Below, one piece after another: positions 19,023-48,725 of a DNA stretch of 60,714 nt. The stretch's first letter is position 1. Each line of letters begins with the position of its first letter. The translations under genes were made by a program, and so were the position numbers. Where the stretch lies: the NCBI GenBank assembly GCA_001821935.1, contig MHOU01000012.1:54070-114783 (forward strand). Reading direction: 5' to 3'. This stretch comes from Candidatus Staskawiczbacteria bacterium RIFCSPHIGHO2_02_FULL_43_16 (GTDB lineage: Bacteria; Patescibacteriota; Minisyncoccia; Minisyncoccales; Staskawiczbacteraceae). The notes under the pieces were generated by a model. The model saw only the letters and a program-made list of their open reading frames with translations, was not told where the DNA came from and did not search any database.

Positions 19023-19065
19023 CTACAACAAAAATCCACAGGCTGGGCTGTGGATAATTTATTTT

Positions 19066-22005: not shown

Positions 22006-22344
22006 TTAAATATTCATCGTTGCTAACAAAACATAAAAGATAAAAAAAGAAATAATAAATAAAATAAAAAATAAGGCAGATATGGTTAATTTAGTTATAT
22101 TTGTTAAAAATTTTAATGAAAAAATAAAACCTAAAAAAACTCCTAGGCACTGAATAAAGATTACTACTATTGCAAGTTTTCTATAGTCGGAATGAATTAA
22201 AAAGTTATCTCTTAATATTGCTGGCGTATTACCGCCGATATAAAAAGAGTAAATAAAGTTACTGACCGGACTCCACAACACCTCCGGCACTAAAAACATC
22301 CCGCCGAAAATCCATAACCACGTTTTTTGCATTTTTGAGATCAT
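22006..22344 (-). CDS. Small multi-pass membrane protein, unknown function
   Basis: 112-aa ORF with 3-4 hydrophobic segments, located in the AT-rich islet. Confidence 0.4.
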   Translation of the reverse strand: MISKMQKTWLWIFGGMFLVPEVLWSPVSNFIYSFYIGGNTPAILRDNFLIHSDYRKLAIVVIFIQCLGVFLGFIFSLKFLTNITKLTISALFFILFIISFFIFYVLLATMNI

Positions 22345-22413
22345 ATAATAAAAATTTTAATAGTATTTATTAATATTATCACTTTGCAATAATTTGCACC
22401 ACAATTTTATGGT

Positions 22414-22638
22414 CTATTGATAATTAATAGCAATATCATAATTAGTTGTAAATATAGTTGTGCTAGCACCGCCTACAAAAATTTTTGTTGTAGCTAAATC
22501 TTGTTTTTGCTCAACAGGAACATCGGGTTGCGTACTAACTTTTTCCGAGCAATCGCTACAAATAGGATAATGAACCACAACGACAATACTTAATAAAATA
22601 ATACTTTTACAAATTTTACATTTTATTTCTTCTTTCAT
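22414..22638 (-). CDS. Small Cys-rich membrane-anchored protein, unknown function
   Basis: 74 aa with CKICKS...TM...CSDCSEK (two CxxC pairs). AT-rich. Confidence 0.35.
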   Translation of the reverse strand: MKEEIKCKICKSIILLSIVVVVHYPICSDCSEKVSTQPDVPVEQKQDLATTKIFVGGASTTIFTTNYDIAINYQ

Positions 22639-22701
22639 GTTTTTATTTATACATTAATTTTTATAATTTGATATTAAAGTTATCCACATTGACCGGCTTT
22701 T

Positions 22702-22726
22702 ATGTTCGGTAAATGTTCGGTATAAT
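22702..22726 (+). promoter_or_regulatory. Tandem direct repeat ATGTTCGGTA x2 overlapping a TATAAT box upstream of the LexA-Dcm gene (candidate operator)
   Basis: atgttcggta occurs at 22702-22711 and 22713-22722. tataat lies at 22721-22726, 30 nt upstream of the ATG at 22756. GTTC is a half-site of Gram-positive-type LexA boxes. Confidence 0.35.
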
Positions 22727-22755
22727 TACATAATAATAACATTTTATAAAATTCT

Positions 22756-24315
22756 ATGTCAACAAACTTAACTCCCAAACAAAAACAGATATTAGAATAT
22801 ATAAAAAAACGTATTACAAAGAATGGCTATGCTCCCTCTCTTGGGGAAATAGGGACGAGATTCAAGCTAGTAAAATCAACAATACATCAGCACGTTGATT
22901 CCTTGATAGAAAAAAAATACTTAAACAAATCAGATTATCGGGCGAGATCATTAGAAATCCCCGAAGATAAAAATGTAACTTTTGTAGAAATCCCGCTCTT
23001 AGGCACGATAACAGCGGGCAAACCGATTGAAGCAATCGAAGTTTTAGGAGAAACCATTTCTATTCCAAGCAATGGGGTAGGGAGAATAAAAGACTATTAT
23101 GCATTGAGAGTATCTGGCGACAGCATGATTGACGAAGGAATTTTTGATGGAGATATAGTGGTCCTGAAGAAGCAATCCGTTGCTGAAAATGGGCAAACTG
23201 TGGTTGCTATAATTGATGACAATTCAGCAACTCTTAAAAAAATCTACAAAGAAGAAAGCCGATTCAGGCTACAACCAGCTAATCAAACGATGCTTCCTAT
23301 TTATAGAAGAGAGGTTGAAGTGCGCGGTGTGGTGATAAAAATCATAAGAGATCTTGAAGGTCAAACTAAAAAACAATTTTCAACTTTAGACTTATTTGCT
23401 GGAATAGGCGGATTAAGGCTGGGTTTCGAAAAAGCTGGCTTTAAAACTGTTTTTTCAAATGATTTTGACAAGCAATGCAAGATAACCTATGATTTGAATT
23501 TCAAAGATTCTAAGTTGATAGTAGAAGATATAAACAAAATAGAAATTAATGATCTCCCGGAATTTAGCTTCCTATTAGGAGGCTTCCCCTGCCAGGCTTT
23601 TTCAATAGCTGGATACAGAAAAGGATTTAGAGATGAAAAGGGAAGGGGGAATTTATTCTTCAGACTGGCAAAAATAATAGATGAACGGGAACCAGAGGGA
23701 TTTTTGCTTGAAAATGTTAAAAATTTGAAAACTCACGATAACGGAAAAACTTTTGGAATTATTAAAAAAACCCTCAAAAATCTTGGCTATCACGTAAAGG
23801 CAGAAGTGCTCAATAGTATGGAGTATGGCAATATCCCCCAAAATAGAGAGCGCATCTATATCGTCGGTTTCAAAAATAAAGATCACTACGAAAAATTTAG
23901 GTTCCCCGAACCTGTTGAGCTGACAACTAAAATCACTGATTTGCTTGAAAGTGAAGTTCCAGAAAAATACTATTACAATAAGAAGCCTCTATTCAATAAG
24001 CTTAAGGACTTCATTAAAGAAAGAGGAAAAGTATATCAGTGGCGCAGGAGGTATGTAAGAGAAAATAAGAAAAATGTCTGCCCTACTTTAACGGCAAACA
24101 TGGGAACAGGAGGCCATAATGTGCCGATTATCAAAGATAAAAATGGCATCAGGAAACTAACTCCTTTCGAGTGTGCGCGCATACAAGGATTTCCAGTTGA
24201 TTATAAATTACCCAAAATAGCAGATTCTGCTCTATACAAGCAATTCGGTAATTCGGTAAGCGTGCCAGTTATTGAAGCTATAGCAAAAAATATTAAAACA
24301 GCAATTACATCCTAA
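22756..24315 (+). CDS. Fusion protein: full LexA-like repressor (wHTH + S24 autopeptidase) joined to a DNA (cytosine-5) methyltransferase
   Basis: Residues 1-205 form the LexA part: LTPKQKQILEYIKK...GYAPSLGEIG, cleavage-site-like ITAGKP (A87-G88), GDSM (S123) and ATLKK (K161). Residues from about 208 to 519 form the MTase part: DLFAGIGG (motif I), GGFPCQAFS (IV), ENVKNL (VI), QNRERIYIVG (VIII), RKLTPFECARIQGFP (IX) and QFGNSVSVPV (X). Confidence 0.85.
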   Translation: MSTNLTPKQKQILEYIKKRITKNGYAPSLGEIGTRFKLVKSTIHQHVDSLIEKKYLNKSDYRARSLEIPEDKNVTFVEIPLLGTITAGKPIEAIEVLGETISIPSNGVGRIKDYYALRVSGDSMIDEGIFDGDIVVLKKQSVAENGQTVVAIIDDNSATLKKIYKEESRFRLQPANQTMLPIYRREVEVRGVVIKIIRDLEGQTKKQFSTLDLFAGIGGLRLGFEKAGFKTVFSNDFDKQCKITYDLNFKDSKLIVEDINKIEINDLPEFSFLLGGFPCQAFSIAGYRKGFRDEKGRGNLFFRLAKIIDEREPEGFLLENVKNLKTHDNGKTFGIIKKTLKNLGYHVKAEVLNSMEYGNIPQNRERIYIVGFKNKDHYEKFRFPEPVELTTKITDLLESEVPEKYYYNKKPLFNKLKDFIKERGKVYQWRRRYVRENKKNVCPTLTANMGTGGHNVPIIKDKNGIRKLTPFECARIQGFPVDYKLPKIADSALYKQFGNSVSVPVIEAIAKNIKTAITS

Positions 24316-24779
24316 GCAACGCCTGCCATTGTTTTTAAAATGGCCCAATTTTCTTTATATCGAGCAATTTTTTTAAGCGATACTGATTTGCCCATTTCCG
24401 CCGTGTCTCCAATCGGTATGATATAACACTCACCGCTCCTTCCATCTACCACAAGTATAATATCGCAATCTTTAGTAGAATATTTATATGTCCTTTGAGC
24501 TACGGCTCTATTGATTTGCTGCCCGCTTCTTCCGCCACCCGTAAGACCTACGCTACCACCGGAAGTACCTTTGATTTGTATCCTTAGTAACCTGCTATTG
24601 CCCACATCAATAATCGCATCATATCTGCCATTAGTAACATCTACCCGCGAACACGGAAAACCAGCCTTTATACATCTGCCCACTCCGATCATTTCGTCAG
24701 AGTTGCCATTGATAGTCCTAAAGATCCCCTTATCAATATTTGTTAAATTTTTTGACCATTCATTTCCTTGTTGTGGCAT
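24312..24779 (-). CDS. Small PD-(D/E)xK-like nuclease, candidate cognate restriction endonuclease
   Basis: 155 aa. The pattern E(MIGVGRCIKAGF)...YDAIIDV...LLRIQIKG fits an E...D...(Q)xK nuclease core. Its 3' end overlaps the methyltransferase gene by 4 nt, tail to tail. Confidence 0.45.
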   Translation of the reverse strand: MPQQGNEWSKNLTNIDKGIFRTINGNSDEMIGVGRCIKAGFPCSRVDVTNGRYDAIIDVGNSRLLRIQIKGTSGGSVGLTGGGRSGQQINRAVAQRTYKYSTKDCDIILVVDGRSGECYIIPIGDTAEMGKSVSLKKIARYKENWAILKTMAGVA

Positions 24780-24850
24780 ATTTTATTAAATTTTAATTTT
24801 AAATGGTAATTATACCTACATTACTCCCATTTTGAGTGGTTTTCAATACA

Positions 24851-24887: not shown

Positions 24888-24945
24888 TTGGTTAAATTAT
24901 GGGCAGGCTACTTCCTTGAAGAAACTTTTTCGAGTGAAGCCATTA

Positions 24946-25214
24946 GGGCCACGGAACGTATTAAAACTAATTTTAGCGGTGTAAATTTGGGCAAGATTCA
25001 AGGCGTCAGAAACGAAGTGTACCCATAGCGGTACACGAGTTTTGTAACAACGAAGAATCTTGCCCAAATTTACCCGCCCGAAGGGAAACAAAAAAGTGAA
25101 AGATTTCTTCGTTACGCCTCCTCGACGTAGCGCGCAGGCTATGCCTCGTCGGCAAGCCTCGAAATCTTTCACTTTTTAGTTTCTAAACCTTAGTTTTAAT
25201 ACGTTCCATGGCCC
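24946..25214 (-). mobile_element. Nested-palindrome (MITE-like) element, copy E1
   Basis: The outer 25-nt inverted repeat is 24946-24970 / 25190-25214 with 1 mismatch. It encloses two long hairpins: gtaaatttgggcaagattc...gaatcttgcccaaatttac (19 bp) and gtgaaagatttc...gaaatctttcac (12 bp). Homologous in reverse orientation to 59905-60173. Confidence 0.55.
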
Positions 25215-43825: not shown

Positions 43826-44240
43826 ATTTCACCTTAGAAAAATAGTGCTCCTCCCTTTCCCGCATCCTATTTTCTTCAGATAGCGAAAGCTCATGGTCAT
43901 ACCCCAGCACATGCAGTATTCCGTGGATTAAGGTTTTGGCCAGTTCTTTTTTTAACGGCAACAGCGAATCTTTAGCCATGTCGCGCACCACAAACGGGCA
44001 AATCACCACTTCCGAATGTTCGTCTTTAAAATCGGATACTTTTTCAAAACTTAAAACGTCCGTTGGCTTGTCCTTATGGCGGTACTTTTTGTTAAGCTTT
44101 TGCATTTCCTGGGGACTGACAAAAGCCACGGAGACATGTTCCGTTCCCCTATTTTCACCTTTTAAAACCTTTTTTGCAACCCCTAAAAAAAACTTCTTAT
44201 CCACAGCAAAATTAGTAAGGTTGTTGATTTCAATTGCCAT
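43824..44240 (-). CDS. ybeY: rRNA maturation endoribonuclease YbeY
   Basis: HGILHVLGYDH zinc-binding motif. The start is at the ATG at 44240 (MAIEINN). Confidence 0.9.
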   Translation of the reverse strand: MAIEINNLTNFAVDKKFFLGVAKKVLKGENRGTEHVSVAFVSPQEMQKLNKKYRHKDKPTDVLSFEKVSDFKDEHSEVVICPFVVRDMAKDSLLPLKKELAKTLIHGILHVLGYDHELSLSEENRMREREEHYFSKVK

Positions 44241-47965: not shown

Positions 47966-48565
47966 TTAATACGTTAGACCTTTAATATACGAAATATCTG
48001 ACAGCGGAAAAATTCTCATGAACGCCTTGCCAATGATATCCTCTTTGGGCAACACGCCCCACCGGCGCGAATCATATGAAAATGGCCGATTGTCTCCCAT
48101 CACAAAATAATTATCCGGGCCAAGCACCATGTGGCTGCTGCCATCCGTGGCAAGCGAACCGGGTAAATAGGGCTCACTTAATACTTGGCTTTTGCCGTCT
48201 TTGGTAATGGTCACTTTGCCGTTTTTAATATCCAGCGTTTCGCCGGGCAAACCAACCACCCGCTTGATAAATCGCTGGCTGGCATCTAATGGATATTTCA
48301 ACACCACCACATCGCCGCGCTTCACATCAGAAAATCGATAAGAAATTTCATCAACAATCAAGTAATCTCCCGAATGGAAATTGGGTACCATACTGTCACC
48401 CTTCACAATAAACGGCTGGAACAAAAAATAACGGATGGGCAGCACAATAACCGCCGCGATAATCAGGATTTTGATGATTTCCCAGCCCAAATCAAGATAT
48501 TTTTTGAAAACACTTTGGGGCTCGGGAGTTGGGTTTTGTTCTTGGCTTGCTAAATATTCCTCCAT
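47966..48565 (-). CDS. lepB: Signal peptidase I
   Basis: GDSMVPN (Ser box), KRVVGLPGE (Lys box) and GDNRPFSYDSR. Confidence 0.9.
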   Translation of the reverse strand: MEEYLASQEQNPTPEPQSVFKKYLDLGWEIIKILIIAAVIVLPIRYFLFQPFIVKGDSMVPNFHSGDYLIVDEISYRFSDVKRGDVVVLKYPLDASQRFIKRVVGLPGETLDIKNGKVTITKDGKSQVLSEPYLPGSLATDGSSHMVLGPDNYFVMGDNRPFSYDSRRWGVLPKEDIIGKAFMRIFPLSDISYIKGLTY

Positions 48566-48725
48566 AATAACCCCAATTTACCATGTTTTTTTCAGGAATG
48601 CAATAGCCAAAAACGTAAAAAAAGAGAGCTATGCGTTGAGGCGCACAGCTCTTGCGTAGCGGGAAAATTGAGGTGAATTTTGAAAGACAGAAGTGCCTGC
48701 GAACGGAGTCGCACCAAGTGTGCAA

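Follow-up and report, generated by a model that had tools for sequence, protein, structure and literature searches.

Type II restriction-modification (R-M) systems are toxic to their host when methylation lags behind DNA synthesis, and how repair synthesis, recombination and stochastic dips in methyltransferase are coped with is poorly understood. Regulatory methyltransferases of the M.SsoII, M.Ecl18kI, M.EcoRII and M.MspI type, which repress their own synthesis through an N-terminal helix-turn-helix (HTH), have been summarised in a 2025 review of R-M systems (PMC12707154). The same review describes damage-induced restriction alleviation for Type I systems only and contains no damage-responsive mechanism for Type II systems. 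Here we describe lexA-dcm, a gene that joins a LexA repressor to a C5 DNA methyltransferase, and the small R-M cassette in which it lies, in a 60,714-nt stretch of Candidatus Staskawiczbacteria bacterium RIFCSPHIGHO2_02_FULL_43_16 (contig MHOU01000012.1, positions 54,070 to 114,783, forward strand; hereafter the window, to which all coordinates refer unless a locus is named).

The locus resembles the SsoII-type regulatory methyltransferases in having a DNA-binding domain N-terminal to the methyltransferase and a predicted operator at its promoter, a likeness that predicts auto-repression and control of the methyltransferase-to-restriction-enzyme (M:R) balance. However, the N-terminal part here is a whole LexA of about 200 aa whose S24 domain retains both the cleavage site and the catalytic dyad; to our knowledge, the known regulatory methyltransferases carry an N-terminal HTH region only. 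The operator is a direct repeat, and the same module is also found on Dam-type, N4/N6-type and Eco57I-type methyltransferases. In addition, SsoII-type systems have divergent, overlapping R and M promoters, whereas the nuclease gene in the window is convergent and is preceded by a separate upstream region at the opposite cassette end, hence activation of the nuclease by promoter competition cannot apply. With the LexA of the SOS response (TIGR00498; 1JHH, 3K2Z) the fusion shares the domain order, the cleavage site, the Ser/Lys dyad, probable auto-regulation and a direct-repeat operator of the kind found in several lineages (PMC7739468), but it differs in its C-terminal 310-aa enzyme, its place in a mobile R-M cassette, the lack of a visible regulon and its position in a clade of its own.

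The fusion gene (22756-24315, + strand) encodes 519 aa with no internal stop. Profile searches place Pfam LexA_DNA_bind (PF01726) at aa 3-64 (1.6e-12; 47.5 bits against a cutoff of 23.7), Peptidase_S24 at aa 80-194 (1.5e-26) and DNA_methylase (PF00145) at aa 208-514 (5e-94, spanning profile positions 1-323 of 324). The NCBIfam LexA equivalog model TIGR00498 matches over practically its full length (174 bits, cutoff 111; model positions 2-202 of 203), and the dcm model TIGR00675 scores 340 bits. In a pairwise HMMER alignment, Ala84-Gly85, Ser119 and Lys156 of Escherichia coli LexA correspond to Ala87-Gly88, Ser123 and Lys161 of the fusion. This confirms that the open reading frame (ORF) is a complete LexA, winged helix plus S24 autoprotease, joined to a complete C5 DNA methyltransferase. 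The initial annotation, made from the letters alone, had proposed an entire LexA at the N-terminus, the same cleavage site, nucleophile and general base, and a full Dcm-type methyltransferase with its motifs, and all of these are borne out with domain boundaries now set by profile search.

Along the gene, the winged-helix DNA-binding domain occupies 22762-22947, with the recognition helix S41-T-I-H-Q-H46, and the S24 autoprotease and dimerisation domain occupies 22993-23337, containing the predicted Ala87-Gly88 self-cleavage site (23014-23019), Ser123 (23122-23124) and Lys161 (23236-23238). A linker of aa 195-207 (23338-23376), variable in length, poorly conserved and lying in indel-rich alignment columns, leads to the methyltransferase domain (23377-24297). 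An AlphaFold model of the whole fusion is of moderate confidence and was used for the linker only, not for inter-domain geometry; residues 200-205 have a pLDDT (predicted local distance difference test) score below 50, and the linker between the S24 body and the methyltransferase domain is thus predicted to be disordered or flexible. The methyltransferase has a complete C5 core with motifs I, IV (PCQ, with Cys279 at 23590-23592), VI (ENV, aa 319-321), VIII, IX and X and a target-recognition domain. Its best match among solved structures is M.HhaI (217 bits over residues 15-322), and PADLOC assigns the fusion to generic Type II methyltransferase models (MTase_II, 416 bits).

The fusion architecture is common in bacteria of the candidate phyla radiation (CPR). 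Among 5.8 billion proteins searched, at least 120 cluster representatives have the same three domains, are about 520 aa long and are 67-90% identical, and wherever a taxon name is attached to a representative it belongs to Patescibacteria/CPR (Azam-, Moran-, Kaiser-, Uhr- and Taylorbacteria, Paceibacterota). A genome scan further yielded 80 loci; in total, 43 loci, the window included, carry a LexA-Dcm fusion, and these were inspected as DNA. In an alignment of 30 fusions (68-86% identity), Ala87, Gly88, Ser123, Lys161 and the methyltransferase motifs are invariant and the target-recognition region is mostly so, while the winged helix is the most variable part. Across LexA modules more widely, all 134 have the Ser and Lys, and 132 have the Ala-Gly pair.

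That separate lexA and dcm genes were joined by a frameshift or a missed stop, a case that the initial annotation had named as a refutation, deserves practically no credence, given that at least 120 representatives, independent of one another and from numerous samples and sources, keep the same frame, as do the 43 DNA loci. Nothing speaks for such an artefact, though separate-gene versions do occur elsewhere (loci L062 and L085, below).

Short contigs with a CPR-type cassette also occur in metagenome-assembled genomes labelled Gammaproteobacteria, Bdellovibrionales or 'Rickettsia typhi' (L010, L016, L025, L031, L033, L036, L056 and others), labels that probably reflect mis-binning rather than true host range. 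In one divergent fusion (L043, 10001-11632; LexA part 34% identical) Cys-Gly replaces Ala-Gly at the cleavage site. Cys-Gly is the cleavage pair of UmuD.

At the 3' end of lexA-dcm lies a convergent gene for a 155-aa protein (24312-24779, - strand) that overlaps the fusion gene by 4 nt. This protein passes the Pfam family PDDEXK_5 (30.2 bits against a cutoff of 26.1) and has 441 homologues; in 30 of them, Glu29, Asp54 and Gln68-x-Lys70 are invariant. Its predicted structure (pLDDT 77.5) matches I-Ssp6803I best (TM-score 0.68/0.71, root-mean-square deviation 2.3 Å), followed by Hjc resolvases. PADLOC gives no match for the nuclease. The likeness to I-Ssp6803I (PDB 2OST), a PDDEXK_5 homing endonuclease, extends to fold (TM-score about 0.7), family model, D...QxK signature and size; however, the window gene lies between the methyltransferase gene and intergenic DNA and outside any group I intron, none being found at the nuclease gene in an RNA-family scan of the window, and it abuts a methyltransferase gene in a slot that elsewhere holds Bsp6I- or NgoFVII-type genes. 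Hence, the NCBI name 'group I intron-associated PD-(D/E)XK endonuclease' is probably misleading here, and the 155-aa protein is the probable restriction endonuclease of the cassette, judged by its family, invariant residues, fold and gene position. The nuclease gene has an upstream region within the cassette (24780-24831, - strand) with a promoter-like TTACCA-18-TAAAAT at 24809-24780. Just past the fusion stop, inside the 3' end of the nuclease gene, a terminator-like hairpin GCCATTGTTTTTAAAATGGC with a T-rich tail (24325-24344) could limit read-through of methyltransferase transcripts into the nuclease gene.

The two genes form a unit of 2.16 kb (22673-24831). In a related Staskawiczbacteria genome with poor synteny, no R-M genes are present within 8 kb of clpB in the gene list; the ends of the unit were therefore taken from its homology to L088 instead (blastn, 80% identity over 2162 bp, window 22673-24831), whose flanking genes are unrelated. 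Flanking genes differ in essentially all 43 loci, apart from partner, controller-type and Vsr-like genes, and the GC content is 0.28-0.38 over 22-25 kb compared with about 0.43-0.48 in the surroundings. A convergent gene abutting the methyltransferase 3' end is near-universal in the 43 loci, but it comes from seven unrelated families: RE_Bsp6I (Bsp6I-type restriction endonuclease, GC^NGC) in 14 loci, PDDEXK_5 in 7, the window among them, RE_NgoFVII_C (NgoFVII-type, GCSGC) in 4, and four families without a Pfam match. Two of the seven, the Bsp6I and NgoFVII types, have Pfam domains of restriction endonucleases. For several homologues of the methyltransferase and of the nuclease, the longest contig given has an identical length. 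With a conserved, adjacent methyltransferase and nuclease pair, and a partner that has a nuclease fold and catalytic residues, the unit is, as read from its genes and their neighbourhoods, a mobile Type II R-M cassette. The initial annotation had anticipated the 4-nt convergent overlap, the E...D...QxK core, the AT-rich setting and the role of the 155-aa protein as the cognate restriction enzyme; each agrees with what was found, the last because the same slot holds Bsp6I- or NgoFVII-type genes in orthologous loci, and structural comparison with PD-(D/E)xK enzymes gave a nuclease rather than a non-nuclease family.

One nearly invariant target-recognition domain is thus paired with both Bsp6I-type and NgoFVII-type genes, and the methyltransferase target is hence probably a GCNGC-type site. 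In six loci (L005, L007, L009, L031, L032, L036) a divergent gene of about 135 aa, resembling the very-short-patch repair gene Vsr (...FIDGDFWHG...), lies directly 5' of the fusion and has a common intergenic promoter region with it, which fits active formation of 5-methylcytosine by the fusion. A C-protein homologue of the HTH_3 family (72-73 aa) lies 3' of the methyltransferase gene in 15 loci (L001, L002, L003, L013, L015, L018, L019, L022, L024, L031, L034, L035 and others), and 5' of the partner gene where examined. The family is in this respect like C-protein-controlled Type II systems, which are also small mobile cassettes with a dedicated transcription factor that sets the timing of methyltransferase and nuclease expression, but the window has no C-protein homologue, and its regulator sits on the methyltransferase and would respond to activated RecA (RecA*), not just to its own concentration.

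The promoter of lexA-dcm has a −10 box, TATAAT, at 22721-22726 (+ strand), which was read from the sequence and is TATAAT or TATACT in aligned loci. Directly 5' of it lies a putative operator, the direct repeat TTCGG-N6-TTCGG (TTCGGTAAATGTTCGG, 22705-22720, + strand), with a period of 11 and an extended unit ATGTTCGG, which has no other match in the window. Among the 43 loci, 32 show an exact 5-mer recurring with period 11 directly next to a −10-like hexamer, an arrangement that 19 of 2000 shuffles also give; the distance from repeat start to ATG, listed for 11 loci, is 51-58 nt. Relatives have a −35 hexamer TTGAYT 17 nt 5' of the −10 box, so that the repeat fills the −35/−10 spacer. Searching 1.22 Mb of fetched related DNA, which consists of part-genomes, for two exact operator words gave 41 occurrences, of which 38 are in LexA-module promoters (one locus having two) and only 3 elsewhere; no regulon site beyond the gene's own promoter is present in the window. 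The repeat unit also varies together with the recognition helix: TTCGG, ATCGG or CTCGG occurs with S-T-x-H-[EQ]-H, TTTCTA with S-T-A-H-[HYF]-[YH], and TTCGA with H-[HY]-H. Taken together, the repeat at 22705-22720 is a putative private auto-operator whose geometry would block RNA polymerase.

Cassettes of the TTTCTA and TTCGA types have a second, inverted copy of the repeat between the −10 box and the start codon (L031, 9915 and 9990; L024, L021, L043), which suggests two operators. The window repeat also reads GTTC-N7-GTTC, which we take to be the word pattern of the alphaproteobacterial LexA box. Binding to direct repeats has been documented for some LexA lineages (PMC7739468), and an SOS study of Patescibacteria (Sanchez-Osuna 2017) and two others are cited there for direct-repeat LexA motifs.

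A perfect DnaA box (TTATCCACA, 22680-22688, + strand) lies 16 nt 5' of the operator and 7 nt in from the cassette's left edge. The exact 9-mer is found at most 150 nt 5' of the fusion in 28 of the 43 loci, at a near-constant position. Three such boxes occur in the window compared with 0.48 expected, the others being at 19049-19057 (- strand) and 44197-44205 (+ strand), and boxes also precede a LexA-Dam fusion (L083), a LexA-N4/N6 fusion (L084) and short LexA-like genes (L085, L086). This suggests that the fusion promoter may also read replication status through DnaA binding.

The module is not tied to C5 methyltransferases. When the LexA part alone was searched against 1.84 billion representatives, the closest relatives (45-62% identity) were for the most part 280-890 aa long and carried the module N-terminally, and canonical 200-aa LexAs predominated only under about 46% identity. 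The C-terminal domains found among 69 scanned relatives are DNA methyltransferases only: N6_N4 in 31, Eco57I or N6_Mtase in 7 and 5, Dam-type D12 in 5 and C5 in 3, with one double enzyme (C5 plus gamma) among the C5 relatives. In a neighbour-joining tree, 52 of 53 fused modules fall in one clade of 62 leaves, and the canonical 200-aa LexAs are grouped separately. The LexA-Dam and LexA-N4/N6 fusions of L083 and L084 are in R-M-like cassettes, and their promoters likewise consist of a DnaA box, a repeat in 11-bp register and a −10 box. Given these shared parts, a portable CPR cassette of DnaA box, direct-repeat operator and cleavable LexA module, grafted onto several unrelated methyltransferase classes so that modification responds to RecA* and possibly to DnaA, is a tentative proposal to which we give somewhat less than an even chance.

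Unfused versions exist as well. In L062 (9959-11986) a standalone 189-aa LexA-like gene is followed by a PDDEXK_5 nuclease gene and then a C5 methyltransferase gene, all co-directional, and in L085 (1155-2671) a DnaA box and the repeat CTCGG-N6-CTCGG precede a standalone 222-aa LexA-like gene that shares its last nucleotides with an N6_N4 methyltransferase gene. The gene order in these two loci points to a functional linkage between LexA and methyltransferase that is independent of fusion. In four other loci (L054, 6642-8354; L058, 9245-10957; L072, 9245-10954; L061) an orthologous C5 methyltransferase (56-67% identity) has an N-terminal extension of about 260 aa in place of LexA. In L054, L058 and L072, the three that were translated, the extension is a RadC-like JAB/MPN domain (HNHPSGDPxPSxxD), that is, a different repair-associated, protease-like domain joined at the same place.

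The reading that we favour, with moderate confidence, is that of an auto-repressed regulatory methyltransferase whose repressor is lost by RecA*-stimulated self-cleavage, so that methyltransferase goes up after damage. The LexA part would dimerise, bind TTCGG-N6-TTCGG and repress its own gene, and such auto-repression would give quick methyltransferase expression in a new host and a low maintenance level later. Filaments of RecA on single-stranded DNA, arising from DNA damage, from replication-fork trouble or from double-strand breaks made by the system's own nuclease at under-methylated sites, would induce the S24 domain to cut Ala87-Gly88. The cut would sever the DNA-binding head from the dimeric body and de-repress the promoter, and the methyltransferase, still joined to the S24 body by the flexible linker, would rise relative to the convergent nuclease. 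Breaks made by the nuclease would feed the same signal, making a negative-feedback guard against self-restriction, and the outcome would be a damage-sensing failsafe, a Type II counterpart of restriction alleviation. As in Type I alleviation, a shift from restriction to protection would follow from proteolysis after damage or exposure of unmodified chromosomal sites; however, in Type I systems it is the restriction subunit HsdR that is degraded by ClpXP, whereas in the fusion the repressor on the methyltransferase would cut itself and modification would go up. The predicted N-terminal cleavage fragment ends in -ITA in the window and in -IAA in most family members; that of E. coli LexA reportedly ends in -VAA and is a ClpXP substrate. 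What the computations show is the architecture, the pairing of methyltransferase and nuclease, the mobility, the selection on the protease residues, and an operator that is conserved, fixed in position, specific to these promoters and co-varying with the helix.

The initial annotation had also expected self-cleavage to tie the SOS signal to the M:R balance, in the direction of a damage-triggered restriction or suicide switch. The conserved protease residues uphold the general link, but not that direction, since the operator is in the methyltransferase's own promoter and the simplest effect of cleavage is therefore de-repression and more methyltransferase, which means protection rather than killing. 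In its full form the suicide switch would have RecA*-stimulated cleavage inactivate or destabilise the methyltransferase (for example through ClpXP or Lon), so that methylation runs out and the cell, damaged or infected, is killed by the nuclease. The conserved protease residues would serve such a switch too, the nuclease gene is convergent and separately controlled (by its own promoter and, in many loci, a C protein), and both cleavage fragments of E. coli LexA are protease substrates. Yet cleavage should first raise synthesis, the methyltransferase domain stays intact on a flexible linker to the S24 body, and existing methylation lasts a generation, so that loss of the enzyme would act slowly; we regard this alternative as improbable. 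Somewhat less so, but still unlikely, is that the LexA module is a dimeric auto-repressor only, a larger version of the HTH of M.SsoII and M.EcoRII, with cleavage vestigial or a matter of basal turnover and no link to RecA or SOS. Auto-repressing methyltransferases with an N-terminal HTH are known (PMC12707154), LexA needs its S24 domain for dimerisation and would retain it anyway, and the operator evidence fits equally well. What tells against an auto-repressor of this kind is that the dyad in all 134 modules and the Ala-Gly pair in 132 of them have persisted across four methyltransferase classes at 40-60% identity, that neither the dyad nor the cleavage loop is needed for dimerisation, and that the one divergent member described above has swapped Ala-Gly for the other known cleavable pair, Cys-Gly.

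A further possibility is that the fusion is the organism's global and sole SOS LexA, controlling a repair regulon through the same direct repeat with the methyltransferase as a passenger. The NCBI name 'transcriptional repressor LexA' and the same repeat type at short LexA homologues are in keeping with it, and no second LexA or S24 gene was found by phmmer in the window; a second GDSM motif there (47969-48577) has no match to LexA. However, the window is a small part of the genome and the lack of a second lexA in it means little. The cassette that holds the gene is mobile, AT-rich and 2.16 kb long, its neighbours differ in every genome, the operator specificity varies between cassettes, exact operator words are rare outside these promoter regions in the 1.22 Mb, and canonical 200-aa LexAs form a separate tree group, all of which makes a global role very improbable.

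Several points weigh against the favoured reading of a cleavable auto-repressor. That the LexA part binds the operator, that it cuts itself and needs RecA to do so, which way methyltransferase levels would move and which site is methylated are all things that we infer. The S24 domain is a dimerisation domain too, and part of its conservation is expected without cleavage; in the AlphaFold model it is only moderately confident (pLDDT 55-79). The −35 hexamer in the window is weak (about 22698-22703), and a promoter scan did not call the lexA-dcm promoter. Few independent switches of operator underlie the co-variation of helix and repeat, which phylogeny also confounds. Repeats of the same type are found at short LexA homologues, and there may be cross-talk with a similar SOS box of the host. 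The direction of the effect hinges on the stability and activity of the cleaved S24-methyltransferase fragment. As to the target, it was derived from the families of the partner enzymes only, and word counts show mild depletion of GCWGC (observed/expected 0.66) but none of GCSGC (0.92), with other words more depleted, and are not decisive.

Outside the cassette, about 290 nt of apparently non-coding DNA (24890-25180), with a strong hairpin at 25017-25036, separate it from clpB; no Rfam family reaches threshold in this stretch. The ClpB protein of this neighbouring gene itself assigns the window to Candidatus Staskawiczbacteria. Rfam and tRNA scans of the window give no match at the locus, and a single tRNA at 56 kb is the sole RNA match. 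On the other side, 22006-22638 contains two small ORFs on the - strand, for a 112-aa putative membrane protein and a 74-aa Cys-rich protein; this is the most AT-rich DNA of the window (GC 0.28) and lies beyond the cassette homology.

The initial annotation had considered the architecture unusual, and we agree: the searchable full-text literature, a search that leaves most subscription journals and REBASE outside, contains no description of a LexA-methyltransferase fusion, and the 2025 review of R-M systems (PMC12707154) does not mention LexA. The structural part of that first picture stands; the operator, the commonness of the fusion in CPR bacteria and the several methyltransferase classes were not in it. 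R-M systems with a regulatory methyltransferase are known, and what is new is a complete and apparently functional SOS sensor on one, widespread in the CPR.

If the favoured reading is true, a methyltransferase that carries a canonical damage sensor would be a direct solution to the toxicity of lagging methylation. Should the tentative proposal of a portable cassette hold as well, these would be the first Type II R-M systems described to have a damage-sensing failsafe against autoimmunity, and LexA would have a second use that does not depend on a regulon. The favoured reading would also take LexA beyond the SOS regulon, as a self-contained, mobile, single-gene switch, and the private operator and helix specificities could serve as orthogonal damage-inducible repressor parts. 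The finding would correct widespread annotation, given that proteins of about 520 aa are named 'transcriptional repressor LexA', the name used by NCBI pipelines, or 'DNA (cytosine-5)-methyltransferase 1', and their partner an 'intron-associated endonuclease'. CPR bacteria have been reported to rely heavily on R-M systems and to have few CRISPR systems, and a damage-responsive methyltransferase would hence bear on how their defences are controlled.

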